In this document: positions 11,740 to 32,500 of the stretch, in pieces
Numbering within the stretch: position 1 is the first letter of the stretch
Layout of the letters: each line of letters starts with the position of its first letter
Source of the DNA: a virus
Taxonomy: Duplodnaviria > Caudoviricetes
DNA: 64,000 nucleotides
Reading direction: 5' to 3' (one strand)
IMG/VR virus record: IMGVR_UViG_3300045952_000362
Location: 628 to 64,627 of that record
The notes under the pieces: model-generated
Seen by the model: the letters and a program-made list of their open reading frames with translations, nothing else
Database searches by the model: none
Told to the model about the DNA's origin: nothing
Program-made: the position numbers and the translations under genes

Positions 11740-11744
11740 CGAGG

Positions 11745-12743: not shown

Positions 12744-12745
12744 CG

Positions 12746-14745: not shown

Positions 14746-14758
14746 GCGGGAGGCGAGA

Positions 14759-16171
14759 GTGGGACTTCGTAAAGCAATCGGCGACGTTGCGTTCAAGGCC
14801 GCGTTGTCGGTCATGCAGAAGACCGTCAGCGATCGGATGACGGACACGCAGCTCGTTCAGTTCCTGTTCGGTCAGTCGACCAGCTTGCCGCGACCAGGAA
14901 CGGGCGCGCTACTTGGAATGTACTCGACCAGCCCATGGCTTCGCGCCGTGACACAGCGAACCAGCTGGGCGGTGTCGGCGGTGCCGTGGACTTTGTCCGT
15001 AGTGACCTCGAAGGAACCGGACAAGCGAGGCAAAGCGGTTCGGCATCGCATGTTGGCCCGTTGCATGGACCCGCAGACGCGTGTCAAGATGTACAAGTCG
15101 TTGCGACGCGACGACTCGCTGCGTGAACTGACGGACCATCCGGCGCTTGCGCTGATGGACGACGGCAATTCCAAGTTCGCCGGGCAAACAGTTCGCTCCA
15201 TCACCCAGCAGCACTTGGACTTGGTGGGTGAAACCTTCTGGATCATGGACCGCAACGGGCTCGGTTTGCCGTCAGCGATCTGGCCCGCCCCGCCTACGTG
15301 GTGCGCGACGCGGCCGCTGGAGGGGTTGAACCCCAGTCCATACAACCCGAAGTACTACGTCTTCACGAGCCCTACGGGCTCTCGAGAGGTGCTGGCGGAG
15401 GATGTGATTCGGTTCTACCATCCGGACCCGCAGGATCCGTACAACCGCGCGAGCGGTATCGGCCACGTGCTGGGCGACGAACTGGAGACAGACGAGTTCG
15501 CTGCCAAGTATACGAAGCGCTGGTTCAAGAACAACGCCATCCCGCCGATGATCGTGTCTCTCAAAGATACGAAGAAGGACAACGTTGAACGGTACGAAGA
15601 CGCGTGGATGAAGAAGTTGTCCGGGCGGCCGAACGTTCCGTTCTTCACGAACCGCGAAGTCACCGTCGAGCAGTTGAACCAAACGTTCCAGCAGATGGAG
15701 CTCACGCAGTTGCGCAAGGACGAGCGCGATGCGATCATCCATGTGTTCGGTGCGCCTCCGGAAATCTTCGGCATCATCGAGAACTCGAATCGCAGCACGA
15801 TCGATGCCGCCGACTATCTGTTCGCGAAGTACGTGGTGGTGCCGCGCCTCGAGTTCTTGCGCATCACCCTCCAGAAGCATCTGATCGAACGGTACGACGA
15901 TCGGTTGATACTGGACTACGTGAGTCCAATCGTGGAAGACAAGGAGTTCAATCTGAAGGTGGTGCAAGCCGCATCGGCCGCCTTCGAAGTCGATTACATT
16001 CGGGAGCTCGGCGGGGCCGGTCCCGACAAGCAGGGTGCAGGACAAGGACGTTTGGTGCCGCTGGGAACCACATGGGTGCCTTCGCTCACAGAGCTGGCGC
16101 CACCGGAAGAAAGCGAACCGACGGACCGACCTGCACCCGTCCTCGAGGGCGACGATGCCGACGATGAGTAA
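14759..16171 (+). CDS. Portal protein (HK97-like)
   Basis: HLDLVGETFW, WFKNNAIPP, AIIHVFGAPPEIFG motifs; follows terL. Confidence 0.92.
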   Translation: MGLRKAIGDVAFKAALSVMQKTVSDRMTDTQLVQFLFGQSTSLPRPGTGALLGMYSTSPWLRAVTQRTSWAVSAVPWTLSVVTSKEPDKRGKAVRHRMLARCMDPQTRVKMYKSLRRDDSLRELTDHPALALMDDGNSKFAGQTVRSITQQHLDLVGETFWIMDRNGLGLPSAIWPAPPTWCATRPLEGLNPSPYNPKYYVFTSPTGSREVLAEDVIRFYHPDPQDPYNRASGIGHVLGDELETDEFAAKYTKRWFKNNAIPPMIVSLKDTKKDNVERYEDAWMKKLSGRPNVPFFTNREVTVEQLNQTFQQMELTQLRKDERDAIIHVFGAPPEIFGIIENSNRSTIDAADYLFAKYVVVPRLEFLRITLQKHLIERYDDRLILDYVSPIVEDKEFNLKVVQAASAAFEVDYIRELGGAGPDKQGAGQGRLVPLGTTWVPSLTELAPPEESEPTDRPAPVLEGDDADDE

Positions 16172-16916
16172 GCGTTCCATCCCGTCGATCGTGTCGAAGA
16201 TTCGGCCTACGCAGTTAACACGGCGGTACAACCCGCTGATGGCCGATATCGTGACCACGTTCGGGAAACGCGCCATGGCAACGGTCGGCAGCGAGGACGT
16301 CTTTCGCGTCAATCGCCGTGTCTCGAATTTCATTCGAGCGCAGCAGGGCGCACTCATTCGCGTGAATCGAACCACGCAAAAGCGCATCGGCAACTTGATT
16401 GCGCAGAAAGTGGAAGCCGGGCACTCGGTGGACCAGATCGCACGGGCAGTGAAGGAACGGTTCATCGAGATGTCACAGGGACGGGCGGACACCATCGCCC
16501 GTACGGCAACGACCGAGGGGTCGAGTTTCGCATCCGTGGAAGGCTATCGACAGGCGGGCGTGGAAGAAAAGGAGTGGCTGACGACAGTGAGCGGCGACTC
16601 TCGAGCATCGCATGTGGCGATGGACGGACAGATTGTGGGCATCACGGAGAACTTTGAATCGGGCGACGGAGGCACGGCCCCGTACCCGGGAGGGTTTGGC
16701 GATCCGAGCGAGGACTGCAACTGCGAATGTGCAGTACTGCCGGTGGTAAGTGAGAAACGACTCAGCTCTCGTGCAATGATCTTGAAAGCGTTCGAGCGGT
16801 TGCGCGCCCCGCACAGACGTGCGATGCGTTCGGCCATGGGCAAAGCGTTTGCTGCGCAGAGCGACGCGGTGGTGGCAGCAATACGGGAATACGACGACGT
16901 GGCCGAGGCCGCGTAA
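16155..16916 (+). CDS. Head morphogenesis protein (SPP1 gp7/Mu F-like)
   Basis: RADTIART, KEWLT..DSRASHVAMDGQ, PG..NCEC. Confidence 0.9.
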   Translation: MPTMSKRSIPSIVSKIRPTQLTRRYNPLMADIVTTFGKRAMATVGSEDVFRVNRRVSNFIRAQQGALIRVNRTTQKRIGNLIAQKVEAGHSVDQIARAVKERFIEMSQGRADTIARTATTEGSSFASVEGYRQAGVEEKEWLTTVSGDSRASHVAMDGQIVGITENFESGDGGTAPYPGGFGDPSEDCNCECAVLPVVSEKRLSSRAMILKAFERLRAPHRRAMRSAMGKAFAAQSDAVVAAIREYDDVAEAA

Positions 16917-16929
16917 GAGAAGGGACGGT

Positions 16930-18129
16930 ATGACGAGGACCGCAGAACGAAATTACATGAGTCCGGAGGGGTTCTCGAAACTCCTTCAGGCTGTCAAGGG
17001 TGATGTGACGCAGGTGGACACGTCCACACTGGCGATCCTGTGCCCCGTGCGCTCAGAAATCAAAGCGCTCGGGGGCGAGAACAGCCGCCTGATTGAGTTC
17101 GTCATCACCAGCGATCGAGTCGATCGGGAGCAGGACACGCTCGCGCCCGACGGTTGGGAGACCGAAGACTACCAGAAGAATCCGGTAGTGCTGTGGGCGC
17201 ACGACCACTACTGCCCGCCCGTGGGTCGCAGCGTGTCGTTGTCGAAGAGCGGTAGTCTGATCAAGAGTATCTGCGAGTTCACACCGCAGGATCTCAACCC
17301 GTTCGGCTACATGATCTACCAGATGTACGTTCAGAAGTTCATGAGTGCGGTGTCGGTCGGCTTTCAGCCGATCGAGTACACGTACGCTGCTGACCGTAAG
17401 TACGGCATCAACTACATTCGGCAGGGGCTGCTCGAATACTCGACAGTGCCCGTGCCGGCGAATCCGGACGCCCTCGCCGTCGCGCGAAGCAAGGGCATCG
17501 ACACGGCACCGCTGCGGTCGTGGGCGGAATCGATTCTCGACAGCAGCAACAAGAAAGAGCTCGGCGACGAAGCACGGCGTCGGCTCGAGGTACTACGGGC
17601 GGCATCGTCGCCCAGTGGCCGTGCGCTTATCCTGGAACTGGGAGAGATGAAGATGACAGGGACGGACACGAAAGACAAGCCGACCACGTCTGATGCGCCC
17701 CCGGCTCCCGCGTCTCCCGTCAAATCGGTGCAGCGTTGGGAGTGTGGAACGGAAGGGCATCTGCACAACTCTGAGGAGGATGCGAAGTCATGCAGCAACC
17801 TCGGAGACGAGATCGAGACTCTGTGCAAGCAGGGACTCAGGATCGCCGAGTTCGTTAAGATGGGACGACTCCTGAACGACGACCAGAAGAAAAAGGTCAA
17901 GGAGGTCCTCGACAGTTTGTCACCGGCCCCGGCTCCCCCGGCGGCCCCAACGAAGGAGGATGCACCAGCGACGGAAGAATCCGGCGTCTTCGAAACGGAA
18001 GCAGAAGGCGACGACGACAACGAGAACGAGAAGGGCTTCGAGCTCGAGATGACCGAAGAGGCCCTGACTGCCGCTGTCACCGCAGCGGTCACCGAGGGAC
18101 TGAACAAAGTGACAGGGCGCGTGGACTAG
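16930..18129 (+). CDS. HK97-type prohead protease with C-terminal extension
   Basis: VDREQD, YQKNPVVLWAHD, AVSVGF, LLEYSTVPVPANPDAL. Confidence 0.92.
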   Translation: MTRTAERNYMSPEGFSKLLQAVKGDVTQVDTSTLAILCPVRSEIKALGGENSRLIEFVITSDRVDREQDTLAPDGWETEDYQKNPVVLWAHDHYCPPVGRSVSLSKSGSLIKSICEFTPQDLNPFGYMIYQMYVQKFMSAVSVGFQPIEYTYAADRKYGINYIRQGLLEYSTVPVPANPDALAVARSKGIDTAPLRSWAESILDSSNKKELGDEARRRLEVLRAASSPSGRALILELGEMKMTGTDTKDKPTTSDAPPAPASPVKSVQRWECGTEGHLHNSEEDAKSCSNLGDEIETLCKQGLRIAEFVKMGRLLNDDQKKKVKEVLDSLSPAPAPPAAPTKEDAPATEESGVFETEAEGDDDNENEKGFELEMTEEALTAAVTAAVTEGLNKVTGRVD

Positions 18130-18176
18130 TCGTCCGTCGGCCCACAACGTAAGTGTTACGAAGGAGCGAACGAATC

Positions 18177-19427
18177 ATGTCCGAGACTGACAAGAACAAG
18201 AAGTCATGGACGCCGGACCAGCTGGTCGCAAAGATCAAGGAAGTCTGTGGCGTCGTCGTGGCGGAGCGACTGGAAACTCTCCAGAAGACCGTCACGGATC
18301 ACGGCCAGTGGATCAGCGGGGCCAGCAGCCATGGCAACCCGCGCATCTCGCTGGCCACCACGAACGATATGAAGGGACTCCTCACGGGCGGTATCGTGAC
18401 GTCTCTTGCGCTCGCGCGTGGCAATGCCAAGGATGCGCTTGACAACGAGAAGAAGCGCTACAACACGGACAAGTCCGAGCACCAGGCTTCGATCATCAAG
18501 GCACTCGAATCGAGCACTGGCACTGCCGGCGGTTTCCTCATCCCCGAGGAATACTCGTCGGACTTCATCGACCTGCTGACGCCTCGTGCGGTCGTGCGTT
18601 CGTTCGGCACCACGGTGCTCCCGATGTCCTCGGGCAGCATGATTGTGCCGAAGCTGACCGCCGCGAGCTCCGCGTACTACATCGGAGAGTCGCAGCAGCC
18701 GACGAAGAGCCAGCCGTCGTTCGGCATCAAGCGGTTGAACGCCCGCAAGCTCGGGGTGCTCGTGCCGCTGTCGAACGACCTGATCCGTCGGGGCGGCCCG
18801 CGTGTCGCCACGGTGGTCCGCAACGACGCACTGCGCTCAGCGTCGCTGAAGGAGGACGTCTCGTTCATCCGCGCACAGGGTACCGACTACACCCCGAAGG
18901 GTCTGCGGTATCAGGCGGCTGCGGCGAACATCCTCACCAGCACGGGCGGTGGCACGTACGATCTGGACTCCGTCACCACGGACCTCGGTCGGATGGTGCT
19001 GGCGCTCGAGGAAGCGAACGTCGCGTTCTCGAACCCCGGCTGGATCTTCTCACCGCGCATCGCGATGTTCCTCTTCACGCTGCGTGACGGGCTCGGCAAC
19101 TACGTCTTCCGGGCGGAGATGTCCACCGGCAAGTTCTGGGGCTACCCGTTCAAGAAGACCACGCAGATCCCGACGAACCTCGGGGACGGCAGCGACAGCG
19201 AGATCTACCTCGCGGACTTCGACGATGTGATCATCGGCGACACGCTGCAGATTCAGGTGGCCGTCTCGGAAGAGGCGACCTACGTGAACGAGAACAACGA
19301 GACCGTCTCCGCGTTCGCGCTCGACCAGACGGTCATGCGTCTCCTGATGGAACACGACATCGTGCTGCGGCACGACGAGTCGGTCGCCGTCATGACCGCG
19401 CCGTGGGCACCGGGAGGCGCCAGCTAG
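18177..19427 (+). CDS. Major capsid protein (HK97 fold)
   Basis: GTAGGFLIPEE, ARKLGVLVPLSNDLI, FWGYPFKKTTQIP, IYLADF. Confidence 0.95.
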   Translation: MSETDKNKKSWTPDQLVAKIKEVCGVVVAERLETLQKTVTDHGQWISGASSHGNPRISLATTNDMKGLLTGGIVTSLALARGNAKDALDNEKKRYNTDKSEHQASIIKALESSTGTAGGFLIPEEYSSDFIDLLTPRAVVRSFGTTVLPMSSGSMIVPKLTAASSAYYIGESQQPTKSQPSFGIKRLNARKLGVLVPLSNDLIRRGGPRVATVVRNDALRSASLKEDVSFIRAQGTDYTPKGLRYQAAAANILTSTGGGTYDLDSVTTDLGRMVLALEEANVAFSNPGWIFSPRIAMFLFTLRDGLGNYVFRAEMSTGKFWGYPFKKTTQIPTNLGDGSDSEIYLADFDDVIIGDTLQIQVAVSEEATYVNENNETVSAFALDQTVMRLLMEHDIVLRHDESVAVMTAPWAPGGAS

Positions 19428-19482
19428 TCGCTGGCTCTTCTTCAACCATCAACGAAAGTCGGAAGGAAGGGAGTAGAGAACC

Positions 19483-19947
19483 ATGCTCGGAACGAACATT
19501 GGAGCCTACGTCACCAGTCGCTTCGCTCTCCAGCGAACGGCACTGGGCGCGGGCGCAGGTGGCAACATTGGCGCCACCGACGGTACGGCTTTCCAGCGTA
19601 CCGCGGTGCGTCCGTTGCACATCAGCACGAAGGTCGTCGTGGGGTACAAGACCACGCTGGCCTCGGGCAATACGCTCACGCTGACGGCGCAGCTGAAGGA
19701 TTCACCGGACGGGATCACGTACTCGAACTTCGGAGCTTCGGCTTCGTCGGTCGTGACGGGTCTCGGCGGTGGCCCGCAGCAGGTCGGTACGCTGGAGCTC
19801 GACGTCAATCTGATGGGGGCGGACAAGTACATTCGTCCGACCGTCACGCCCGTGCTGTCGGCATCGGGTGTGGACACGGCCGAGATCTTCGGCGTGTACA
19901 TCCTGGGTGGCGGCGAAACGGTTCCGCCGACGGAGTCCGCGCAGTAG
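19483..19947 (+). CDS. Probable capsid decoration/cement protein
   Basis: Immediately after MCP; beta-rich, LKDSPDGITYSNF and KYIRPTVT. Confidence 0.65.
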   Translation: MLGTNIGAYVTSRFALQRTALGAGAGGNIGATDGTAFQRTAVRPLHISTKVVVGYKTTLASGNTLTLTAQLKDSPDGITYSNFGASASSVVTGLGGGPQQVGTLELDVNLMGADKYIRPTVTPVLSASGVDTAEIFGVYILGGGETVPPTESAQ

Positions 19948-19980
19948 TCGCGCTGGCTCCTGAATGAGGCGAACAAACGT

Positions 19981-20058
19981 GTGGGTGCGACACCATGAGG
20001 GTCCTGCTGGATCACCGGCGACGGTGGGCCTCCCCAGCATGGGGGTGTCGCACCCCAC
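19981..20058 (+). promoter_or_regulatory. Structured leader upstream of the glycosylation operon
   Basis: GTGGGTGCGACACC 19981-19994 pairs with GGTGTCGCACCCCAC 20044-20058, enclosing a TGCTGG/CCAGCA stem and ACCG-GCGA-CGGT GNRA hairpin. Confidence 0.5.
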
Positions 20059-20083
20059 GGCTCTTCTTCCCTCGGAGGAGCAA

Positions 20084-21175
20084 GTGATAAAAGTATCTGA
20101 TGTGACGATGTTCGGAAATGAACTCCGCTACGTAACGGAGGCCGTCCGCGAAGGATCGGTCTCATGGCACGGGCGGTTCGTACGTGAATTTGAAACGGCG
20201 TTCGCGCAGTACGTCGGGAGCAAGCATGCGCTGGCGTGCTGCAATGGAACTGCGGCGTTGCACCTCGCGCTCGAAGCGGCCGGTATCGGCCCCGGCGACG
20301 AGGTCATCGTACCGGTCTTGACCTACGTGGCTACGGCTAATGCGGTGCGCCACGCCGGGGCGCGTCCAGTGTTCGTCGATGTGGACCCCACCACGTGGTG
20401 CATGAATGTGGACGAGGCCGACCGGGCGATCACGTCGCGCACCAAAGCGATCCTGCCGGTGCAACTCTACGGCCACTGGCCCGACATGGGGCTGCTGCAA
20501 CACATCTGTAAGCGTCGCCAGTTGATGCTGATCGAAGATGCGGCCGAAGCACTAACCGCGCATTGGAAGAGCCAACATGCCGGCACATTCGGTATCGCCG
20601 GGGCCTTCAGCTTCTTCGCTAACAAAACAATCACGTGTGGCGAAGGTGGCATGGTCGTGACGAACAGCGACGGCGTGGCCGATACGGTGCGTCGCCTCCG
20701 GGCCCACGGCATGGAGCAGTCCATCCACCAGTACTATCACGATCGGCTCGGCTACAACTATCGTATGACGAACCTGCAAGCGGCCGTTGGGCTCGCGCAG
20801 CTGGAGACGTTGCCGGTGTTGCAGTCGCGTCGGGTCGAAGTGGTGCACTACTATCGAACGCACCTGAGCGAATTCGAGCAGCAGTGGTCGTCGGTCACGG
20901 CGATCCCGAGCAATTGGATGTTTACAGTATTGGTACCGAAAGGGGTTTCAGTTACGGATGTGCGGGCGCGGATGGCAGAGGATGGCGTGGAGACCCGTCC
21001 TTCGTTCTTGCCATTGAGCACGTTGCCCATGTACTCCGATTCGCTACGGTCGTTCCCGGTAGCGTCGGATATCTCGAACAGGGGACTCTGCCTGCCAACC
21101 CACGCAGGTTTGACCGTCGCGATGCTGGCGCACGTCGAGACGTCGTTTCGCAAGGCGCTACAGGAGGCCGCATGA
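20084..21175 (+). CDS. DegT/DnrJ/EryC1/StrS sugar aminotransferase (perosamine synthase-like)
   Basis: CNGTAALHLAL, IEDAAEA, FSFFANKTITCGEGGM, GYNYRMTNLQAAVG; RBS GGAGGAG before GTG. Confidence 0.95.
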   Translation: MIKVSDVTMFGNELRYVTEAVREGSVSWHGRFVREFETAFAQYVGSKHALACCNGTAALHLALEAAGIGPGDEVIVPVLTYVATANAVRHAGARPVFVDVDPTTWCMNVDEADRAITSRTKAILPVQLYGHWPDMGLLQHICKRRQLMLIEDAAEALTAHWKSQHAGTFGIAGAFSFFANKTITCGEGGMVVTNSDGVADTVRRLRAHGMEQSIHQYYHDRLGYNYRMTNLQAAVGLAQLETLPVLQSRRVEVVHYYRTHLSEFEQQWSSVTAIPSNWMFTVLVPKGVSVTDVRARMAEDGVETRPSFLPLSTLPMYSDSLRSFPVASDISNRGLCLPTHAGLTVAMLAHVETSFRKALQEAA

Positions 21176-21780
21176 AAGTACTGCTACTGACCAAGACGTC
21201 AGAGTGGTGCCGTCGCGCGCACGCATTGATGCGCGATCGGTTCCCCGACCTGACGATTTTCGCCGGAGAGGCCGGCACGTTGCTCCCACCAGAGGTTTCG
21301 AAGTGGCGAGGCGATTTGATTCTGTCGTTCGTGTGTCCGTGGATTCTACCGGCAACGGTACTGGCGCACGCGGGACTGGCGATCAACTTCCACCCGGCTC
21401 CACCGGAGCATCCGGGCTTCGCCCCGTACTCGTGGGCGTTGTATGCGGGCGACGTCAACTACGGCATCACTGTGCATCATATGGTGCCGCGGGTGGACAC
21501 GGGTCTCATCATTCGAGTCGAACGGTTTCCGATCGACCCGTCACAGTCTGTCTACCAATTGCAGCAGCTCACAATGCATCACCTGCTGACGGCGTTGGAC
21601 GAGATGACCATCGCCGACTTCTACGTCTCGTCGGGCGATGAGTGGACCCGGACACCGCGCACGCGTCAGGATTTTGAAGTGCTGCGACATGTTCGCCATG
21701 AGATGGGCGAACGAGAAATCAATCGACGCATCCGTGCGTGTACGTATCCCGGTCGCCCCGGCGTGGAGGTGATCTCATGA
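21172..21780 (+). CDS. Formyltransferase (sugar N-formyltransferase-like)
   Basis: AINFHPAPPEHPG, YGITVHHM..VDTGLII (Formyl_trans_N motifs). Confidence 0.85.
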   Translation: MKVLLLTKTSEWCRRAHALMRDRFPDLTIFAGEAGTLLPPEVSKWRGDLILSFVCPWILPATVLAHAGLAINFHPAPPEHPGFAPYSWALYAGDVNYGITVHHMVPRVDTGLIIRVERFPIDPSQSVYQLQQLTMHHLLTALDEMTIADFYVSSGDEWTRTPRTRQDFEVLRHVRHEMGEREINRRIRACTYPGRPGVEVIS

Positions 21781-22298
21781 AGCACATCCTCGAACTCTGG
21801 GAGCACTTCAAAGAGACGGGCATCATCGGGGCGCCGACGACATGGTACGAGCCGATCGTCATGACCCGGGAGGAGAATCTTCGTCGCGGCCACAACACGC
21901 GTGTGGATGGATTCGTGAAACTCGAATGTGGCAACGGTCTGTGGATCGGTGAGAACGTTCACATCGCCTCGTTCTGCCACATCGGTGTCGGAGGCGGCCA
22001 CGTCATCATTGAAGACGGTGCGACATGCTCCAGCAGTGTGAAGCTGATCAGTGGTACGAGTGTGCACGAACTCGGACGTAGCTGCTCGGCCATCGCGCCG
22101 GACTTCAAAGCGGAGCGATCGTTCGTTCATTTGAAGAAAAACGCGTGCGTGTTCGCCGGAGTTATCGTCCTCCCAGGAATTACGATCGGCGAGAACGCCG
22201 TCGTGGGGGCCGGAGCGGTGGTCACGCAGGATGTACCGGACGGTGCGATCTATGCGGGCGTGCCGGCCCGTGTGCTCGCACGAAGGGAGGCTCTGTGA
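21777..22298 (+). CDS. Hexapeptide-repeat acyl/acetyltransferase
   Basis: VLPGITIGENAVVGAGAVVTQDVPDGAIYAGVPAR. Confidence 0.92.
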   Translation: MKHILELWEHFKETGIIGAPTTWYEPIVMTREENLRRGHNTRVDGFVKLECGNGLWIGENVHIASFCHIGVGGGHVIIEDGATCSSSVKLISGTSVHELGRSCSAIAPDFKAERSFVHLKKNACVFAGVIVLPGITIGENAVVGAGAVVTQDVPDGAIYAGVPARVLARREAL

Positions 22299-22981
22299 AG
22301 AACCTTCTCCTTTCGTACTGGCGTAATGACGCCGACCGTGACATCTGGACGCGGATGAATCACTTGCTGCTCAAGAAGGATGTGGAGCAGTTCATGTGGG
22401 TCGTCGGGGATTCGTCGGATGATACCGCAGCCATCTTGCACGAGGCCGCCGACATCGACTCTCGTGTGCTCGTACTTCACGCGGACAGCGGAATCAAAGG
22501 CGAGGACATCGATACGCGTCGTCGCCGGATCTCGCACACAGAAACGTTGGCGTACGGAACGATCGCCCACATGCCGGACATCGACTACGTGATCCAACAC
22601 GAGTCGGATCTTCGGTCGCCGGTCGACGTCGTCGCTCGGTTGTTGGCGTTGGCCGATGAGCGCACCGTCGTAGCGGGTTGGCCGATCTTGCATCTGCCGA
22701 GTGGCCCGGTGTTCTACGACATCTGGGCCTACCGTGGATTGGACGGCGATCCGTTCACAGGGTCAGCACCGTACCACGTTTCATATCGCGCTGACGAACC
22801 GTTTGAAGTCGGTGCGGTGGGCAGCGTGTGGCTCGGCCATCGCAAGCTGTGGGCCCACCGAGGCATCGAACGGGAGTGCTGTCTCGAGTTGTGCCGGCAG
22901 TGGCGTGCCGAGGGTGTGCGCATCCTCGTGGATCCGCGGATTGAAATCGAACAGCCGCGAGAACTGTGGGTGGTGTCATGA
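22295..22981 (+). CDS. GT-A-fold glycosyltransferase-like protein (paralog 1)
   Basis: GDSSDDT, HESDL, FYDIWAYR, EVGAVGS; shared with next gene. Confidence 0.65.
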   Translation: MKNLLLSYWRNDADRDIWTRMNHLLLKKDVEQFMWVVGDSSDDTAAILHEAADIDSRVLVLHADSGIKGEDIDTRRRRISHTETLAYGTIAHMPDIDYVIQHESDLRSPVDVVARLLALADERTVVAGWPILHLPSGPVFYDIWAYRGLDGDPFTGSAPYHVSYRADEPFEVGAVGSVWLGHRKLWAHRGIERECCLELCRQWRAEGVRILVDPRIEIEQPRELWVVS

Positions 22982-23682
22982 ACTTCGCGCTGATGTCTGC
23001 GTTCCGAAACAGCAGCGGGTTCCACACCAACCGTTATTTCCGGCAGGTGTCGCGACTGGCGAATGCGTTGGCGGCCCGTGGCGATGCGTTGCATCTGCGA
23101 TTGGTCTGGGGCGATTCGGTGGACGGCACCGGCCAGGAGCTCGAGAAGTACGCGACGGCGTTCGTCGGTACAAACGAGGTGCGGTCCTACAGTATCGTGG
23201 AGCGGTCACACGGCGGTCCCGTCTTCGGCAGTACGGAAGAGGCGGCCCGCATGAAGGCGTTGTCGTGGGTGGCGAACGGGGCGTTCGAATCCATCGGTGA
23301 CGACATCGATGTCGCGATGTGGGTGGAGTCCGACCTGCTGTGGGACCCGGCCACGATCGTTCGTCTCATCCATCGGCTGAGCGAAACCGATGTCGTGGCT
23401 CCGCTGATCTTCGCCGGGGAAGCTTTCTACGACATCTGGGGATTCCGTTCGAAGGATGGCACGCGGTTCGGTCCATTCTATCCGTACCACGAGTCGATGA
23501 AGTTCAACGGCGACGTGACCGAGGTTGGGTCGGTTGGTAGTTGTTTGGTGATGCGTGGAGAGGTAGCGCGGCAGTGTCGGATTCGTAACGACTACTGTCT
23601 CGTCGGGTTCTGTGAAGACGTTCGTGCCCACGGCTACGTGATCTCGGTCGACGGGCAGGAAAGGATTCAGCACCCCGCATGA
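22978..23682 (+). CDS. GT-A-fold glycosyltransferase-like protein (paralog 2)
   Basis: GDSVDGT, WVESDL, FYDIWGFR, EVGSVGSCLVM. Confidence 0.68.
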   Translation: MNFALMSAFRNSSGFHTNRYFRQVSRLANALAARGDALHLRLVWGDSVDGTGQELEKYATAFVGTNEVRSYSIVERSHGGPVFGSTEEAARMKALSWVANGAFESIGDDIDVAMWVESDLLWDPATIVRLIHRLSETDVVAPLIFAGEAFYDIWGFRSKDGTRFGPFYPYHESMKFNGDVTEVGSVGSCLVMRGEVARQCRIRNDYCLVGFCEDVRAHGYVISVDGQERIQHPA

Positions 23683-24569
23683 ATACCAAACTTCGCGTCT
23701 GCGCTCGCGCCCTCCCAGAGCATCTGTCGTTGGGCATTCATCGTGTCGCCAATGCGCTCATCCGGTACGCACCGGATTGGGTGAAACTCGTGGACGACCC
23801 GGACACGGCCGATCTCCGCATCGGTCACTGTATCGGAATCCAGGATATGGAAGCGTGGTGCGCCAAAGGCCCCTACGCTCTCGTGCAATACTGCCTGTTG
23901 ACGGGCGGGGGCTCTCGAGAGGAATGGGCGTCGCTGTGGAAGGGCGCACGGGCCGTCTGGAGCTACTACGATCTCAACGAGTTCCTGCGCCCACTGCGTG
24001 AGCAGTCGACGTGTGGATGCGGCGATGGGATCAACTTCTATCACGCACCGCTTGGTGTTGACACGTCGGTCTTCCGGCCGTCGATGCCGGCACGGAAACC
24101 GTTCCTGATTGGTACGTCCGGTTTCATCGCCGCGACGGAATCAGTTGAGGAATGTCACGAGGTCGTGAAGCGTCTCGGTCGCCGGCAGTTCCATCTCGGA
24201 CCGACGGAGATGGAACTGGGTGACGATGTAACCTACATGCTGCGCGTGCCCGACGCGGCCGTCGCGGACATGTGGAGCCAATGCACCTTCGTCGCCGGGC
24301 TGCGGCGCATCGAAGGCTTCGAGCTCCCCGTGCTGGAAGGCCTGGCATGCGGAGCCCGCCCGATCGTGTTTGATGCACCGCACTACTCCCAGTGGTTTGG
24401 GGAGCACGTGGAATACGTCCCCGAGGTGGCTCCGGCCGAACTCGTGGATGCGCTGATGGAGATAATGTCGAAGCCGGTACGACCCGTAACCCCGGCTGAG
24501 CGATCCCTCGTCGCTGCGACATTCGACTGGAAGAAACTGGTTGCGGGATTTTGGGAGGCCGTGCGATGA
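23679..24569 (+). CDS. GT-B (GT4-like) glycosyltransferase
   Basis: PLGVDTSVF, EGFELPVLEGLACG, FDWKK. Confidence 0.85.
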   Translation: MNTKLRVCARALPEHLSLGIHRVANALIRYAPDWVKLVDDPDTADLRIGHCIGIQDMEAWCAKGPYALVQYCLLTGGGSREEWASLWKGARAVWSYYDLNEFLRPLREQSTCGCGDGINFYHAPLGVDTSVFRPSMPARKPFLIGTSGFIAATESVEECHEVVKRLGRRQFHLGPTEMELGDDVTYMLRVPDAAVADMWSQCTFVAGLRRIEGFELPVLEGLACGARPIVFDAPHYSQWFGEHVEYVPEVAPAELVDALMEIMSKPVRPVTPAERSLVAATFDWKKLVAGFWEAVR

Positions 24570-25780
24570 AGGTTTTGTGGATTGGAGACGCCGTTGTGCA
24601 ATCGGGCTTTGCCCGCGTGACGCACAACATCGTGGGACGGTTGAAGACGCAGCACAAGTGTGACGTGCGGGTACTCGGGGTGAACTACAATGGAGATCCC
24701 CACCCGTATGACTATCCGATCTATCCGGCGCTGATCGGCGGAGACCCGTGGGGGATCCAACGAGTGCCGGGGGTCGTGCGCGACTTTCAGCCGGATGTGA
24801 TCTGCATCAACAACGATCCGTGGAACGTGGCGCAGTACCTGTCGGTGATCCGCACCGCGGTGCCGACGACTGCGTACATGCCTGTCGATGCGCCGAATCA
24901 AATGCATGCCGGCGAGCTCAGCGTCATGCCGCGAGCGATCGCGTACACCAACTTCGGAAAGAAGGAGTTGTTGCTCGGCGGCTACAACGGGCGCGTCGAT
25001 GTGATCCCGCACGGAGTGGACACGGAGATCTACAAGCCGGTCGAAGATCGCGTCACGGCCCGCAAGTGGCTCGAGTTCCAACCGAAGCTGACGGACGAGC
25101 AGATCGGCAACCTGTTCATCGTGTCGAACGTGAACCGGAACCAGCCGCGCAAGCGCTTGGATCTCACCATCCAGTACTTCACGCAGTTCTGGTTGAACAT
25201 CGGACAGCCGTCGCACGTGCGCCTGCATCTGCATTGCGGCGAGCACGACATGGGCTGGAACGTGTCACAGCTCGCGAAGTACTTCGGGATCAACAAGCAG
25301 CTGATCATCACGACTCCGAAGATGTCGTTGCAAGCGTGCATCAAGGAGCACGAGCTTCGACTCGTGTACGGAATGGCGGATGTCAATCTCAGCACCACGC
25401 TCGGCGAGGGCTGGGGCCTGACGACGCACGAGAGCATGGCGTGCGGAATCCCGCAGATCGTACCACGTTACTCGGCGCTCGGCGAATGGCCGGACGGGGC
25501 GGTGCGCTACGTGGAGTGCACGTCGTTCCAAGCCACGCACAACGCGGTCAACACCATCGGTGGAGTCGCCGACATGGCGCAGACCGTTGAGGCGCTGACC
25601 GATCTCTATCGCAATGCCGACCTGCGAACGAAGCTGGGGTCGGCCGCACTGGCTCGTGCGACGGAAGAGCGGTTCAAGTGGGACAAGATCGCCGCGCAGT
25701 TCTACGTCGCACTGGCGGAGACCTTCAACGAGCGACGCGCAGCACCAGTAGGGGTGGAGGCTCCCCGATCCAATGGTTAG
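24566..25780 (+). CDS. GT4-family glycosyltransferase
   Basis: SGFARV, IPHGVDTEIY, NRNQPRKR, GEGWGLTTHESMACGIP. Confidence 0.92.
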   Translation: MKVLWIGDAVVQSGFARVTHNIVGRLKTQHKCDVRVLGVNYNGDPHPYDYPIYPALIGGDPWGIQRVPGVVRDFQPDVICINNDPWNVAQYLSVIRTAVPTTAYMPVDAPNQMHAGELSVMPRAIAYTNFGKKELLLGGYNGRVDVIPHGVDTEIYKPVEDRVTARKWLEFQPKLTDEQIGNLFIVSNVNRNQPRKRLDLTIQYFTQFWLNIGQPSHVRLHLHCGEHDMGWNVSQLAKYFGINKQLIITTPKMSLQACIKEHELRLVYGMADVNLSTTLGEGWGLTTHESMACGIPQIVPRYSALGEWPDGAVRYVECTSFQATHNAVNTIGGVADMAQTVEALTDLYRNADLRTKLGSAALARATEERFKWDKIAAQFYVALAETFNERRAAPVGVEAPRSNG

Positions 25781-26018
25781 ATTCACACGACACTACGGCA
25801 AGTACAACAAGGACGAGACGGCGACCTTCTCGCCGGACCACGAAAAGTGGTTGATCAAACAGAAGTACGTCGTTGAAGTGGAGGCACCCGTGGCGAAGAG
25901 CACCAGCACCGATCCGAAGGGCGGCCCGCAACCGCCCGCAAACCAGCCAGGGACGAAGGATCCTGGCCAGCCGCAGACCCGGCAGACCACCGTCGGACCG
26001 CAGCGAAGCGGTCGTTAA
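25773..26018 (+). CDS. Small head-associated hypothetical protein
   Basis: Short YNKDETATF domain plus Pro/Thr-rich tail. Confidence 0.55.
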   Translation: MVRFTRHYGKYNKDETATFSPDHEKWLIKQKYVVEVEAPVAKSTSTDPKGGPQPPANQPGTKDPGQPQTRQTTVGPQRSGR

Positions 26019-26210
26019 TGGCGGGGGCCGGGGCCGCCTTGCCCGCCTGCAGGCGTTAAGGGGGTGGGCAAGGCCCCCGGTTCCCTCGTTGGGGCCGGTG
26101 TAGGGGCGTTAATGGTCGGCTTCCCGGCGTGCAGCCGGGGCCGGGAGAGCGGGAACGGACGGCCGGGAGACGGCCGGGGGGACGGACGGGGCCGGGGGCC
26201 AGAGGGCAGC
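26011..26210. repeat. GC-rich phased island 2
   Basis: A/T steps at about 26017, 26039, 26049, 26058, 26070, 26081, 26090, 26101, 26110, 26121, 26131; contains GGGGCGTTAATGG. Confidence 0.8.
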
Positions 26211-26212
26211 AC

Positions 26213-27109
26213 ATGAACATTCAGGTTGTTGAGGGGCCGCGCACGACGTGGTTCACCACACTGCGGCGAGTGAAAGGCGAACTGGGCATCACCAGCGATG
26301 CGCAGGACGAACGTTTGTCCGCGCTGATCGGCGAGGTGTCCGACGACATCGCCGAGTTCACCATGCGTCCGTGGGCACGACAGTCCGTGACCGAACGCTT
26401 GGTCGGCTACGGCACAACGCAAAGCACGCTCAGCATCACACCGATCGCGGAGCGGCCGTCCGAAGTACGGTACTACGACACGGCGGTATCGGGCTACTCG
26501 GTCGCCGATGCCGAAGCCGGATTCATTATTCGTCCCGATCGCTTCGCCGAGACGCGTCCGTACACCACGTGGGTCAACACGGACCCCGACGTCGCGTCAC
26601 AGGGCGAGCGTGCGTGGGCGTTCGATTACATCGGCGGCTATTTAATGCCGGGCGACGACATGCTCCCCAGCGGTATCATGTCCGCGCTCGCGGTGGACAG
26701 CTCGTTCAATCTGACGGGTGTCGATACGATGGAGACACGATTTCCATTGCTCGTCTCTGGCGAGTACGTGGTCGTGGCCGGATTCTCGATCTCCGGGAAC
26801 AATGGACGGTTCCGTGTCCTGAGTCGCACGCCATCGAAGCTCGTGGTCGCCGGCACGCTCGTGGATGAAATGCCGAGCGGTGTCCTGTCGCTGCGATGCC
26901 GCACGTTGCCGCGCAATCTCGAGGGCTACGCGATCGAAGAGCTCCGTGCGCGATGGGATCGCGCCACACGGGATCCGTCGTTGACGTCTGAGCGCATCGG
27001 CGACTGGGGTGCGTCGTACGACAACCCGGCGAACAAGGATGCCGAGGGATTGGGCGGCCTGTCGCCACGTGTGGCACGCGGACTCGAACGTTACGTGAGG
27101 AATGAATAA
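26213..27109 (+). CDS. Head-tail connector/adaptor with inserted beta domain
   Basis: TTLRRVKGELGI..QDERLSALI, LTSERIGDWGASY, LERY; insert GEYVVVAGF..NNGRFRV. Confidence 0.75.
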   Translation: MNIQVVEGPRTTWFTTLRRVKGELGITSDAQDERLSALIGEVSDDIAEFTMRPWARQSVTERLVGYGTTQSTLSITPIAERPSEVRYYDTAVSGYSVADAEAGFIIRPDRFAETRPYTTWVNTDPDVASQGERAWAFDYIGGYLMPGDDMLPSGIMSALAVDSSFNLTGVDTMETRFPLLVSGEYVVVAGFSISGNNGRFRVLSRTPSKLVVAGTLVDEMPSGVLSLRCRTLPRNLEGYAIEELRARWDRATRDPSLTSERIGDWGASYDNPANKDAEGLGGLSPRVARGLERYVRNE

Positions 27110-27444
27110 TGAGTCGCGTCACGCACTTGTTGATCGACACGGTCTCGATCTACCGGGAGAGCGAACTCGAGAAAGGCCGGGGCCGGTGGCAGGACAATCT
27201 GGTGCCACTGGCGCTCAACATCCGTGGCCGCATCTGGACGATGTCTGCGCAGGAGCAGGTCGTTGGGCAGCAACGGAAAACGTACAACGCTCCGGTGGCC
27301 TATTTGGAACCGGATCAGGACGTAGCTCCGGAGGACTACATCGAGCGGAGCGGCGAATGGTATCGCGTGGTGGCGGTGACGCCTCCGTCGATCCCACATC
27401 ACAAACGACTCGTGCTTGAACTCATCATGCGAGGGTCGCTGTGA
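27109..27444 (+). CDS. Head closure (stopper) protein
   Basis: Position, size, DYIERSGEWYRVVAV. Confidence 0.7.
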   Translation: MSRVTHLLIDTVSIYRESELEKGRGRWQDNLVPLALNIRGRIWTMSAQEQVVGQQRKTYNAPVAYLEPDQDVAPEDYIERSGEWYRVVAVTPPSIPHHKRLVLELIMRGSL

Positions 27445-27842
27445 AGATCACGAAATGGAACGCCGACAAGGTCGAAGCGAAAGCGACGCAGATCATGGAG
27501 CGTCGTGTGGCCTTGGCGTCGGTCGTCGTGCAAGGCGAAGTGAAACGAAAACTCAACCGGAGCAACCGAGGGGGTACGGAACCTTCAGCTCCCGGTCAAC
27601 CGCCCAACAAGGGGAGCGGAGATTTACAACGCAGCATCTTTCAGGAGGTGACGAGAGTAGGCAAAATGGTGCACGGCTTCGTCGGCAGTCGATTGTTGAA
27701 GGCGCGAAGATTGGAACTAGGGTATGTGGGACGGGATCGGCTAGGTAGAACGGTGGATCAAAAGCCGCGTCCGTTCCTTCGGTCAACACTCGTGGAGCAG
27801 CGGGATCGGCTACGTTCGATTCTTCTCGGGGGCAAGAAATGA
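27441..27842 (+). CDS. HK97 gp10-like tail completion protein
   Basis: SAPGQPP..SGDLQRSI, LELG, PRPFLR. Confidence 0.8.
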   Translation: MKITKWNADKVEAKATQIMERRVALASVVVQGEVKRKLNRSNRGGTEPSAPGQPPNKGSGDLQRSIFQEVTRVGKMVHGFVGSRLLKARRLELGYVGRDRLGRTVDQKPRPFLRSTLVEQRDRLRSILLGGKK

Positions 27843-28264
27843 CGGCAGTGCAGAATGCGTTGTTCGATGCGATCTCAAACTTGGGGGCGGTGACCTCCTG
27901 GGCGAGCACGTATCGGGGGAAACCAGCCATCTTCACGCGCAGTCCAATCCCACCCCAGGTGGATGGGAACTATCTGGTCATTCGCGATTCGCTTGTGGAC
28001 GTGCCCGGCGTCGGTGAAACCAAAACGACGACGGGCCGGTTCGTGATGCACGACATCGGACTGTACAAGACCGAGGACGGCGACCCGTCCGACATCCAAG
28101 ACATGGCCGAGCTGGTGCGTGACACCTTGCATCGAAACCAGTTGGCGGTGTCTGGCTACGGCAATGCGTTGATTGTCAAAGCCATGGGACCGATTGAAGT
28201 CGACGAAGACCAAGTCTATGGGCGCATCGTAACGGTGTCGCTCGATTTGATCAAGGCTCAGTAG
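27839..28264 (+). CDS. Tail terminator (DUF3168-like)
   Basis: VQNALFDAI, AELVRDTLHRNQLAVSG; position before tail tube. Confidence 0.7.
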   Translation: MTAVQNALFDAISNLGAVTSWASTYRGKPAIFTRSPIPPQVDGNYLVIRDSLVDVPGVGETKTTTGRFVMHDIGLYKTEDGDPSDIQDMAELVRDTLHRNQLAVSGYGNALIVKAMGPIEVDEDQVYGRIVTVSLDLIKAQ

Positions 28265-28283
28265 GAGCAGAGGGAGAAGAGAA

Positions 28284-28706
28284 ATGAGTCCGACCCAGGG
28301 ACCGAACGGAGAGGTCAATGGATTTGACGTCATCGTGCAAGTGCAGGAGCCAGCGGGCACCGGCGACTATGTCACGATCGGCAGTCAGCGGGGTGTCACG
28401 TTCGGCGAGCAGACGAACGCGATCGACATCTCGTCCAAGGAACGACGCGAGGGCGTGTACCTGCCCGGCCGCTACACCAGCACGGTGCAGCTCGAGCATC
28501 TGTACATTCCGAGCGCGTCGGGATACACGAAGCTGAGGACCGCCATGCGCACTGGCACCTTCGTCCGCCTCAAGCGGAAGGAGCTCGGGAGCGATCACGA
28601 GGTTGCCAATGCCGTCATCACGGATCTTCAGAGCAGCATGCCCGACCAGGATGCGGCGGTCGTCTCCGCCAGCTTCCAGGTATCCGGCGCATGGGGCGCA
28701 CCGTAG
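28284..28706 (+). CDS. Major tail tube protein (TP901-1-like)
   Basis: TIGSQRGVTF, AIDISSKE, AVITDL, SASFQVSG. Confidence 0.85.
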   Translation: MSPTQGPNGEVNGFDVIVQVQEPAGTGDYVTIGSQRGVTFGEQTNAIDISSKERREGVYLPGRYTSTVQLEHLYIPSASGYTKLRTAMRTGTFVRLKRKELGSDHEVANAVITDLQSSMPDQDAAVVSASFQVSGAWGAP

Positions 28707-29526: not shown

Positions 29527-32500
29527 GTGGCTGATCCACTGCATGAGAAACTTGGCGAGGCGATAGTTGAGATCCGGGCGGACCTAGCGGGGCTCCGTTC
29601 GGATCTTGAGAAGGGTCGCAAAGAGACCGGCAAGGAAGTCGATCGGTTTGGTAAGGAGATCACCGATCGCTTCAAGAATATCGCCGCTGGGTTCACTGTC
29701 GGCAATCTGCTGATCAAAGCGACCGAAGGTATTATTGCCTTCGGCGCTGCGGCCGTGGAGAATGCCGGCAACCTCGTCGACATGTCTGCGAAGACGGGCG
29801 CGAGTATCGAGTGGTTGCAGCGGGCCGGGTTCGTCGCCAAGCAAACGGGCGCGGACATCGGCTCGCTGACGGATGCCGTGTTCAAGCTCGGCATCAACAT
29901 GGCGAAGGGCGGCAAGGAAGTTACACAGGGCCTTGCCGACATCGGTCTCAAGTACGAGAAGATCAAGACGCTCAAACCCGAGGACCAGTTCGACGCGATC
30001 GCCGAGGCGCTCAAGTCGATTGAGAATCCGCAAGAGCGCAACCGCATCGCGCTCGAGATCTTCGGGAAGTCCGCCGGGAAAATCCTCCCAGCGGTTTTGG
30101 ATGACTACATTAAGCTCAAGGACGAGGCCCCCGTCGTTGCGGAGGCGCAGATCCGTGCGCTGGACAAAGCGGCGGATCGGTGGGATAAGTTCAAGGACGA
30201 AGTGTCGGCGGCCACGGCGAGCATGCTCGGACAGGCCGTCATGGATATGGAGGCGGCCGCCAGTGGCTGGTCCAAGTTCTTTGGCGATGTCAAGGCCACA
30301 ATCGCCGGGGGCATTCCCGGTCACATCGCCTACGTGGAACAGCTGCGTGCGCAAGCGTCGGCCGAACGCGATGCGAAGAAAGCTCTGGAGGAGAAGGCCA
30401 AGGCTACTGCGGCTGCGATCCCGCCGAAGAAGTCCTACTCGCAAGCGCTAGCGGAGGCCCGCAAGGAAGTTCAGGAGCTCACGGCCGCTGAACGAAAGAA
30501 CATCAACGCCGCGTTGGAGTTGGGTGCGAGCACGGAAGACCTCACCAAGGAGTTCGGCATCTCCGAGGGGGCCGTCAACCTGTACAAGGAGCAGCTGCAG
30601 AAGAACACCGAGGCGACGAAGAAGAACTCGGAGGCGAAGCAGAAGCTCGCAGAGACCGAGAAGGTTCTGCAGCAGTTGCAAGCCGGGGTCTCTGACGAGA
30701 TCACGAAGACCATCGTCGCCCTCGAAGCGCAGGGCCTCTCGACCGAGCAGATCGCGGGCAAGCTGAAACTCTACAGCGAGACCGTCAAGCAGGTACTGGA
30801 GAATCAGAAGCGTCTGCGCGACTTCGAGGAAGAGGGCGCGAAGGCCCGTGCGGATCAAGCCGAGCGGGAGCAGAAGCGAGCGGAGCGCATCCGCGAGATT
30901 CAGAAGTCCAACTACGACGTGCTCCTTGAAGTGGAGCGCGAGTACCAGGATGTGCACAAGCGTCGCACGTACTCCCAGTTCGAGTACGACAAGGAGCAGA
31001 TCCGTCTCTGGGTTCAGGATCAGCAGCGCCGATTGGATACGTCGGTCGCCGGGTGGGAGACAGCGTGGGCGCAGATCGAAGTCGCCGGTGAAGAGAAGCT
31101 GCAGGAGTTGGCGGCCGAGCATTCGAAGACCTCGATGCAGATGGCCATGGACACGGTCAAGGTTGAGAACGCATGGGCGGATGTCTTCGATGCGCTGCCC
31201 GGTTTGCTTCGATCGGCACTGACCGGTGGCGGGGGGCTCTCGGGATTCGGCAACGCGTTCGGATCCATGATCACCGAGCAGCTGGGCAAGAAGTTTGTCG
31301 GCAGCAATATCGGCACGTCGGTGTTCGGGAAGGCTGCGGACGGGATCGGGAAGCTCTTCGGGAACAAAATCGGCAACGCGTTTGCAATGGCCGTGCCGGG
31401 AATGGGTGGGGCTCTCGGTGCGTTGATGACACCGATGCTCAACAAGCTTGGCAACGGCGTCATGGGCAGCACGGCGAAGGGGGCCGTCTACGGCTCGATG
31501 TTCGGACCGTGGGGCACGGCGATCGGTGCCGGCATCGGCGCCATCGTGGGGGCGTTCAAGACCGGCTCCAACAAAACGAAGAAGGTGCGTGAGGAGTTTG
31601 CGAAGGCCGTTGGATTCAAGGATCTGCCGTCGCTGCTGTCGGATCTCGAGAAGATCGACGCCAAGGGCGCGAAGCTCGCGCACACGGCCCGCAACATCAT
31701 CGGCAAGAACGACGAGGCGGGTAACAAGCAGTGGATGGAGGATGTCAAGAAGTTCTACGACGACGTCGCTGCGAAGAAGCAAAAAGACCTCGATGACGAG
31801 ATGGATGCCCGCGAGCGATTGCAGAATGCGCTCGAGAAATATGGGTTCACCGTTGAGGAATACGGCGACGTGTGGAAGCGGATGATGTTGGCCGATCAGG
31901 CCAAGGAGTTGTTGCTGGACTTCACGGCGCTGACCGCGTCGGGCGTGAACTTCGATACGGTCATCAAACGCATGGGCTCACACATTCAGGACTTCATCAC
32001 GACGTCGCTGAAGACCGGCACCGAGGTCCCGGAGAGCATGCGCAAGATGTTGCAGCGTATGGTGGAGACGGGAGAGCTGTTCGACGAGAACGGGAACAAG
32101 ATCGAGGATCTCGAGAAGAGCGGCATCAAGTTTTCCATGACGATGTCGGAAGGATTCAAGTCGGTCACCGACAAGTTGGAAGAGCTCATCAAGAAGATCA
32201 CCGGCGATCTGACCAAGAGTCTAACCACGCTGCCGAGCCCCATGGTGGAGATCGACGTGCGGCCACGGGCCGGGTCCGGTCTCATCTGGCGCACGCAGGA
32301 CAACGACCTTCCCCAGATGGAGAAGGGTGGCATCATCAATGCGGGCAAGGGCGCACTGGCGGTATTGCACAACCGCGAGGCGGTCATTCCGTTGGATCAG
32401 ATGCCGAGTTGGATGGAAGGGATGGGCGGTCTCGACGAAGACAGTCTCGTCGCCGCATTGAAGGCGGCAGGCATCTCGAGACCGAATGTAAACTTCGCAC

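Follow-up and report, generated by a model that had tools for sequence, protein, structure and literature searches.

A five-gene sugar cassette, encoding an aminotransferase (AT), a hexapeptide acetyltransferase (Hex) and three glycosyltransferases (GTs), recurs at the same place in the genomes of many related uncultured phages. The version analysed here has seven genes and occupies positions 20084 to 25780 of the window, a 64,000-nt stretch that corresponds to bases 628-64627 of a single 64,627-base uncultured tailed-phage record (100 % complete according to CheckV). It is proposed, with a probability of about 0.55, that late in infection the predicted enzymes act in the cytoplasm and glycosylate proteins of the phage's own virion.

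The seven-gene cassette

20084..21175, + strand: AT, pyridoxal 5′-phosphate (PLP)-dependent nucleoside diphosphate (NDP)-sugar 4-aminotransferase, GDP-perosamine-synthase-like (PF01041)
21172..21780, + strand: FT, sugar N-formyltransferase of 202 aa (PF00551)
21777..22298, + strand: Hex, left-handed beta-helix (LbH, hexapeptide) acetyltransferase (PF00132)
22295..22981, + strand: GTA1, GT-A-like glycosyltransferase, paralogue 1 (similarity to GTA2)
22978..23682, + strand: GTA2, GT-A glycosyltransferase, paralogue 2, the marker of the cassette family (PF11735 and model)
23679..24569, + strand: GTBs, compact GT-B (GT4-like) glycosyltransferase of 296 aa (PF00534 and model)
24566..25780, + strand: GT4 glycosyltransferase (PF13439, PF00534, PF13692)

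All seven enzyme names given in the first-pass annotation of the window hold, based on matches to Pfam, PHROG and NCBIfam, on the similarity of GTA1 to GTA2, and on structural models. The starts of Hex, GTA2 and GT4 were corrected to 21777, 22978 and 24566, respectively. The six junctions are ATGA or GTGA overlaps (ATGA where the AT stop meets the FT start), in agreement with the translational coupling that had been claimed, and GT4 overlaps an 81-aa open reading frame (ORF) by 8 nt. The location within the structural module is likewise borne out, with the capsid gene (18153-19427) on the 5′ side and adaptor, neck, tail tube, and tape measure genes on the 3′ side.

The match of AT to PF01041 is strong (387.1 bits, cut-off 19.8, E 1.2e-115), with residues 12-353 aligned to positions 6-357 of the 360 in the profile. 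FT scores 58.9 bits with PF00551 (cut-off 26.1), and its triad of N72, H74, and D109 is invariant in 21 out of 21 aligned family members and aligns with the active-site motif of ArnA. Hex reaches 38.5 bits with PF00132 (cut-off 27).

For GTA1 there is no Pfam, PHROG, or NCBIfam match. It is 29 % identical to GTA2 over 239 columns (E 7e-18), and judged by sequence the two are true paralogues. GTA2 itself matches PF11735, a GT-A mannosyltransferase family, at 29.4 bits (cut-off 28.8). When folded with 26 homologues, its model (predicted local distance difference test score, pLDDT, 95.5) has a GT-A fold, with a Foldseek probability of 1.00 to COLGALT1, Mnn9, LH3, GlfT2, and ppGalNAc-T; the match to the collagen galactosyltransferase COLGALT1 has an E value of 1e-12 and that to yeast Mnn9 with GDP and Mn a query TM-score (TMq) of 0.72, and the solved neighbours also include Mimivirus R699. 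A candidate DxD-type motif, E121-S122-D123, is invariant in 27 out of 27 sequences.

GTBs lies exactly at the PF00534 cut-off (26.4 bits for both), and its model (pLDDT 93.2) is a complete compact two-domain GT-B, for which the best Foldseek matches are the methylmannose-polysaccharide mannosyltransferase 7qsg, GlgM (6tvp), and PimB' (3oka). GT4 is just above the cut-offs of PF13439 (28.7 against 28.5 bits) and PF00534 (27.8 against 26.4 bits), is above that of PF13692, and matches phrog_2170 (E 6e-35); homologues 28-33 % identical are present in phages S-CBS4, S-EIVl, and TJE1. A Kyte-Doolittle scan found no 19-residue hydrophobic stretch above 1.82 in any of the seven proteins, all of which are predicted to be soluble.

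Conservation among related viral loci

The synteny survey that had been suggested in the first-pass annotation was carried out by scanning IMG/VR with the GT-A alignment; 91 relatives were confirmed and 80 loci (given L numbers here) were kept. A gene was scored as present on a tblastn match at E 1e-5 that spanned no less than 40 % of the query. GTA2 was found in 73 of the 80 loci, GT4 in 54, Hex in 49, GTBs in 41, AT in 38, GTA1 in 13, and FT in none; these counts are lower bounds, since many loci are short fragments. The core of AT, Hex, GTA2, GTBs, and GT4 is complete in 24 loci and in that order in 23, in all of which Hex follows AT. Downstream of the core a tail-tube homologue is present in 22 out of 24 loci. 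Of the 14 core loci with more than 3 kb of upstream sequence, 13 have a head or adaptor gene there.

The head genes around the core differ from locus to locus. Annotation with PHROG of the 20-kb context of five loci (L018, L031, L036, L048, and L058; 116 ORFs) places the cassette between capsid/adaptor and neck/tail-tube genes in all five, with portal (phrog_146), protease (phrog_760/530), decoration (phrog_766), and capsid (phrog_771) families that are different from those of the window. The head or tail genes of the window itself are shared by only three of the 80 loci, L008, L012, and L028. In yet another capsid lineage (L082-L085) the sugar genes lie on either side of the scaffold and capsid genes, the order in L082 (2348-11157) being AT, unknown, GT-A, Hex, unknown, scaffold, capsid (Phage_capsid_4), head completion protein, and GT4; in L054 the order is GT-A, connector, head completion protein, and GT4.

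Homologues of GTA2 number 344 at an E value of 0.001 or better. Among the 119 matches listed, leaving out GTA2 itself, identity is 45-64 %, and many are on contigs of 57-73 kb. When one genome was searched for each of 185,579 cellular species, the GT-A family was found on two short metagenome-assembled genome (MAG) contigs of 6.2 and 7.9 kb, in Acidobacteria and Chloroflexota bins; neither is long enough to identify a host, and they could be phage DNA that ended up in these bins. A megablast search of positions 18000-27200 against cultured phages gave no match, queries with the DNA polymerase and the portal gave no close cultured relative, and no relative was confirmed when the capsid protein alone was used as the query for related loci.

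In contrast to the core, FT is rare: apart from FT itself there are 22 homologues, of which the nearest is 58 % identical. The longest contig is 33,174 nt both for this nearest FT and for the nearest GTA2 homologue, therefore the two are probably on one contig. Only 179-282 nt separate AT and Hex in L008 and L012, the closest structural relatives of the window. The absence of FT from all 80 loci, together with the small number of homologues, indicates that the N-formyl step is a rare add-on, and the seven-gene version is thus the five-gene core with FT and a second GT-A added. FT is, as judged from these homologue counts, a lineage-specific addition.

Of the 79 extra ORFs inside the cassettes, 63 were scanned; the other 16 belong to L019, a duplicate of L018, and to L049, L081, and L083-L085, which were taken as duplicates because their cassette layouts are those of L043, L080, and L082. 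The extra ORFs encode Methyltransf_24 proteins (nine loci), GT2 enzymes (five loci), GNT-I-like and Anp1-like GT-A proteins, GNAT and short-chain dehydrogenase/reductase (SDR) proteins, and an AMP-binding enzyme. The content of the slot varies as that of glycan loci does, which was counted in favour of virion glycosylation.

Some loci have features of their own. In L040 an epimerase/GDP-mannose-dehydratase-type enzyme is encoded directly before AT, and positions 10001-20533 form a 10-kb sugar island with GT-A, GNT-I-like, and Anp1-like GTs, methyltransferases, a GNAT protein, an SDR, an AMP-binding (acyl-adenylating) enzyme, and a GT2, which points to an N-acyl sugar pathway that is self-sufficient and of greater complexity. 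Homing endonucleases (HNH/NUMOD3 and GIY-YIG) are found inside the cassette in L024 (450-860) and L052 (11707-12495) and are a possible vehicle for exchange of the cassette between phages. In L058 (12320-14287) a GT4 is fused to a C-terminal galactosyltransferase-like domain in a protein of 656 aa (phrog_2170 and phrog_29879).

Probable sugar chemistry and proposed target of glycosylation

The best solved relative of AT is perosamine synthetase (3bn1/3dr4; 301 bits, E 1e-88), followed by matches of 236 and 188 bits. Identity to 3bn1, counted on the printed alignment, is approximately 45 %, and FSFFANK in AT aligns with FSFFGNK in 3bn1 (SFxxxK motif), the lysine of which presumably forms the PLP Schiff base. 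As a single sequence, FT is distant from all solved enzymes (best ArnA, E 2.6e-8; 5vyt, E 5e-6). The profile of the FT family, built from 21 members, has its top match in the GDP-4-amino-4,6-dideoxy-D-mannose formyltransferase 5vys (66.9 bits), with the gramicidin F (formylation) domain (63.3 bits), ArnA (62.7 bits), and Rv3404c (60.9 bits) as runners-up; that FT adjoins AT favours a sugar as its probable substrate. The best matches of two independent enzymes point to GDP-perosamine chemistry, and several GDP-mannose-using enzymes are among the structural neighbours of the GT-A and GT-B proteins, which is suggestive but no proof. The earlier guess of N-formylperosamine thus has two independent supports, both modest, in the closeness of AT to 3bn1 and of the FT profile to 5vys; the lead of the latter over the next family is small (66.9 against 63.3 bits).

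For Hex, the best NCBIfam families are the WbbJ, WcaF, and LacA O-acetyltransferases and NeuD/PglB/VioB, all under cut-off, and the best match in the PDB is the WxcM-like N-acetyltransferase domain of 4mzu, followed by maltose and galactoside O-acetyltransferases. The modification may therefore be either N- or O-acetylation. As had been noted in the first-pass annotation, there is no dehydratase, and this holds for the whole record: PF16363, PF01370, and PF00483, covering 4,6-dehydratase/epimerase and nucleotidyltransferase, have no matches, so the keto-sugar must come from the host.

In the proposed pathway, the host would supply a GDP-4-keto-6-deoxyhexose, most simply GDP-4-keto-6-deoxymannose made by a host GDP-mannose dehydratase. 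The phage AT would convert this to a perosamine-like GDP-4-amino-4,6-dideoxyhexose, the amine of which would be acylated by FT (with N10-formyl-tetrahydrofolate) and/or Hex (with acetyl-CoA), unless Hex instead O-acetylates the sugar. The two GT-A and two GT-B enzymes would then assemble a glycan of a few sugars on newly synthesised capsid, cement, or tail-tube subunits. Of this scheme, the sequence shows the enzyme families with their catalytic motifs, the coupling, the conserved placement among structural genes, and a lack of genes for lipid carriers, export, integration, and DNA-base modification; the nucleotide and the sugar, the final acyl group, and most of all the acceptor protein are inferred.

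The nearest precedents come from mycobacteriophages. Virions of Corndog, Che8, and Myrna are reported to be glycosylated (Freeman 2023 as cited in PMC12363180, PMC12619734), with the glycans on capsid and tail-tube subunits and a reported role in shielding virions from antibodies (PMC12363180, PMC12619734). In Corndog, gp35-38 (a methyltransferase and three GTs) are encoded between portal and capsid, co-oriented with the capsid gene, and the GTs of the window are likewise phage-encoded within the head part of the structural operon. Unlike the window, the Corndog stretch covered has no aminotransferase, formyltransferase, or LbH acetyltransferase; virion glycans are reported for Corndog and predicted for the phage of the window.

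The chemistry has a closer parallel in Mimivirus, in which a viosamine cluster of R141 dehydratase, L136 aminotransferase, and L142 N-acetyltransferase-GT is reported to make products that decorate the fibrils (PMC9614988). In both, a DegT-type aminotransferase and an acetyltransferase stand beside GTs, and the donor for particle glycans is (in the phage, would be) an N-acylated 4-amino-4,6-dideoxyhexose; among viral proteins, those structurally nearest to GTA2 are also giant-virus GT-A proteins (ChoanoV1, TMq 0.79). Mimivirus differs in having its own 4,6-dehydratase and using UDP/dTDP sugars, whereas the phage lacks a dehydratase and its best matches point to GDP sugars; the phage also carries FT, while the term 'formyl' does not occur in the review (PMC9614988). 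The cassette thus resembles Corndog in gene position and Mimivirus in probable chemistry. The claim that it goes beyond GT-only cases stands in comparison with the proven mycobacteriophage examples, so far as these were covered, and not for viruses generally, as Mimivirus reportedly has an aminotransferase and an acetyltransferase of its own for making Vio4NAc (PMC9614988). In literature of limited coverage, no phage-encoded sugar aminotransferase with N-formyltransferase, and no perosamine, was found to be tied to virion glycosylation.

Compared with bacterial N-acyl-perosamine pathways, the likeness is in the identity of AT to 3bn1 and in FT, with its Asn-His-Asp triad and best match to 5vys. 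The differences are that Hex matches the perosamine N-acetyltransferase 4ea7 over residues 122-169 only, that the phage FT is short and distant, that there are no Gmd, export, or ligase genes, and that the setting is a virus structural operon. The bacterial enzymes 3bn1, 5vys, and 4ea7 come from Caulobacter and Brucella and include WbkC.

Among cultured phages, the Synechococcus phage S-CBS4 has its GT4 homologue between portal and protease/capsid, beside a second GT and a methyltransferase, and the Tetrasphaera phage TJE1 has one near structural genes, with a nucleotidyltransferase and a sugar epimerase. Neither has the AT-Hex pair, and no GT-A member is annotated in the stretches covered or was found by tblastn. 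S-CBS4 (L002, 7294-10415) and Corndog (L006, 7776-10528) share the layout of portal, GT, 'galactosyl transferase', and methyltransferase before protease/capsid, in phages of a cyanobacterium and a mycobacterium, respectively, and on record there seems to be no link drawn between the genes of S-CBS4 and virion glycosylation.

A virion target, first put forward in the first-pass annotation, is supported by several lines of evidence. By overlaps, shared strand, and the position from capsid to adaptor, the cassette forms one unit with virion genes, and its place is conserved across unrelated sets of head genes in many divergent phages. Corndog provides a precedent, the proteins are predicted to be soluble, and the record has no surface-glycan or lysogeny gene, nor, among those searched for, the genes needed for modification of the host surface or of DNA.

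Other observations weigh against it. An acceptor was sought and none identified, and the C-termini of capsid and tail-tube homologues have no obvious Ser/Thr-rich tail. No cultured phage carries the GT-A family, as tblastn did not find GTA2 in 50,697 cultured-phage records. Position by itself is no proof, since structural operons carry unrelated cargo too. Where flanks of more than 4 kb are available to the left and right (32 loci), head and tail genes could be recognised on the expected sides in only 12; the remaining 20 are mostly distant loci with flanks that escaped the queries used. An unexpected gene order was flagged in three loci (L055, L057, and L086). The GTs of the window have no detectable sequence similarity to Corndog gp36-38, matching them by BLASTP in short patches only, with E values from 0.008 to more than 1. 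A GT4 enzyme, moreover, needs no membrane segment in order to use lipid-linked intermediates of the host. The identity of the sugar, too, rests on best matches with thin margins, as for FT; the best NCBIfam model for AT is the LegC family, at 324 bits, under the cut-off of 420, and no perosamine-synthase model is among the 25 NCBIfam families listed for it. The LegC family presumably also consists of GDP-sugar enzymes.

The main alternative is that a host envelope glycan (O-antigen, capsule, S-layer glycan, or wall polymer) is remodelled late in infection by transfer of N-acyl-amino-sugars onto lipid-linked intermediates, for example to block adsorption of progeny or competing phages to infected cells and debris. 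The nearest relatives of known function for AT, FT, and Hex do work in O-antigen or surface polysaccharide pathways, GT4 enzymes are generally known often to use lipid-linked acceptors at the cytoplasmic face, and the variable gene content is like that of O-antigen loci; the Brucella smooth lipopolysaccharide (S-LPS) is reported to be a homopolymer of N-formylperosamine (PMC5981137). The record nevertheless lacks what such a role would lead one to expect, as there are no matches to integrase or resolvase (PF00589, PF00239) or to an initiating phosphoglycosyl transferase (PF00953, PF02397), no flippase or polymerase, and no multi-pass membrane ORF, with no ORF having more than one hydrophobic 19-mer of at least 1.9 in a simple Kyte-Doolittle scan. 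Known seroconversion genes sit near the attachment site, unlike this cassette, which is tied to head and tail genes across several capsid lineages. The near absence of the GT-A family from cellular genomes indicates that it is not carried by prophages, which also counts against envelope remodelling; it is therefore considered unlikely.

A still less probable explanation is a late acceptor of another kind (small molecule, lipid, or free oligosaccharide) or the mere diversion of host GDP-sugar pools. In its favour are the putative status of the virion acceptor and the structural neighbours of GTBs, some of which glycosylate small molecules and lipids, namely BshA, MshA, PimA, tetrahydrobiopterin glucosyltransferase, and SenB. 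Four GTs in a fixed order argue instead for a stepwise glycan on a defined acceptor, and the persistent linkage with structural genes would be left unexplained.

That the cassette hypermodifies phage DNA with sugars to evade restriction is very improbable, although phage GTs are classically DNA-modifying (PMC9614988, PMC12619734) and genes of nucleotide metabolism, with ThyX and MazG/NT5C domains, are present in the genome: the record has no match to a ThyA-type hydroxymethylase (PF00303), with only ThyX found and other attachment-site routes not searched, and the cassette belongs to the late structural operon, approximately 20 kb from the replication module, which is encoded on the other strand. 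DegT-type aminotransferases, sugar N-formyltransferases, and LbH acetyltransferases moreover act on NDP-sugars. On the points given for these alternatives, seroconversion, DNA glycosylation, and inert cargo were rejected as the main explanation.

If the glycosylation of virion proteins is taken further, it can tentatively be proposed, with more doubt than confidence, that the virions of a large group of siphophages, a group hardly ever met in cellular genomes, carry a coat of glycans that the phages make themselves, that differ between lineages, and that have an N-acylated 4-amino-4,6-dideoxyhexose at their centre. In that case the cassette would be an exchangeable virion 'serotype locus', and this phage would be the first with a phage-made N-formyl sugar, possibly N-formylperosamine, on a surface that copies an O-antigen epitope. 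The O-antigen-like shield or mimic envisaged in the first-pass annotation is speculation. Glycosylated phage particles have so far been documented in a few mycobacteriophages (PMC12363180, PMC12619734). Should the proposed virion glycosylation hold, particle glycosylation with self-made rare sugars would be common in environmental siphophages and genetically modular, like glycan loci, which bears on how phages avoid recognition or non-productive binding, on particle stability, on the annotation of genes usually filed as 'auxiliary metabolic genes', and on the engineering of therapeutic phage surfaces. The cassette is also a source of compact, predicted-soluble enzymes for N-acyl-amino-sugar chemistry.

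Flanking genes and other features of the record

The window has a G+C content of approximately 61 %, and no tRNA genes were found in it. A siphophage structural module extends on the + strand from about 12 to 43 kb and includes the following.

13318-14745, + strand: large terminase
14657-16171, + strand: portal
Between portal and capsid gene, + strand: MuF-like head morphogenesis protein, then protease/scaffold
18153..19427, + strand: major capsid protein, HK97-type (PF05065, E 2.9e-40; phrog_10, E 2.8e-45); candidate acceptor
19483..19947, + strand: 154-aa Bbp16-like protein (ESM Atlas lead), possible capsid cement/decoration protein; candidate acceptor
25773..26018, + strand: 81-aa ORF overlapping GT4, with a weak match to phrog_38773 only
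26213..27109, + strand: head-tail adaptor, the downstream boundary (phrog_442, E 4e-9; PF05135, 21.2 bits, at cut-off)
3′ of the cassette, + strand: Neck1-like protein
28284..28706, + strand: tail tube protein (PF06199, E 2e-10; phrog_1407, E 1e-15); candidate acceptor
Tape measure at 29527-32631, with chaperones and large distal tail proteins, + strand

The first-pass annotation had placed capsid decoration on the 5′ flank of the cassette. The capsid gene is there; the decoration label comes from the ESM Atlas, in which the product of 19483-19947 has a feature score of 0.96 and a structure TM of 0.87, with PF21190 (Bbp16) in 14-63 % of cluster members, and there is no Pfam or NCBIfam match. 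Bbp16 is taken here to be the capsid cement protein of Bordetella phage BPP-1, and the label stays a lead. Homologues of this protein sit behind the capsid gene in L008 and L012, and the 81-aa ORF has a homologue in one of the 80 loci, L028.

A terminator-like hairpin with a T-run is located at the capsid gene stop (19419-19435); such hairpins are common behind highly expressed capsid genes. Across 18000-28500, nine terminator-like sites were found against 6.3 expected, which is not above chance, and a sigma-70 promoter scan of the same region found none against 2.3 expected. No Rfam family was found in 19000-27500. Between the 81-aa ORF and the adaptor gene there is a G+C-rich non-coding gap of approximately 190 nt (26018-26212), which opens with a long hairpin right after the stop codon. 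Its fold has a minimum free energy of -112 kcal/mol (z -2.0; equalled in eight out of 200 shuffles), and it could be a terminator or attenuator between the cassette and the neck genes.

Among the distal tail proteins, one of 1638 aa (33494-38410) is a likely receptor-binding or fibre protein. It has no PHROG family, and its sole family match is to the Ig-like Big_3_5 at residues 551-631, below cut-off (29.8 against 35.5 bits).

The replication genes begin at 43 kb on the - strand; their products include a DNA polymerase of family A, an SNF2 helicase, a PD-(D/E)XK nuclease, and a protein with a ThyX domain. Two long overlapping ORFs at 49940-52778 (- strand) have unusual fusions or extensions for nucleotide-pool enzymes: in the 491-aa ORF the ThyX (Thy1) domain is confined to residues 151-354, and the 504-aa ORF combines MazG and NT5C nucleotidase domains.

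In the protein collection, the exact GTA2 and FT proteins of the window are found on nine contigs. The longest of these, at 120,987 nt, has nearly twice the length of the record; it might represent a concatemer, a relative with a larger genome, or an assembly that includes host DNA.

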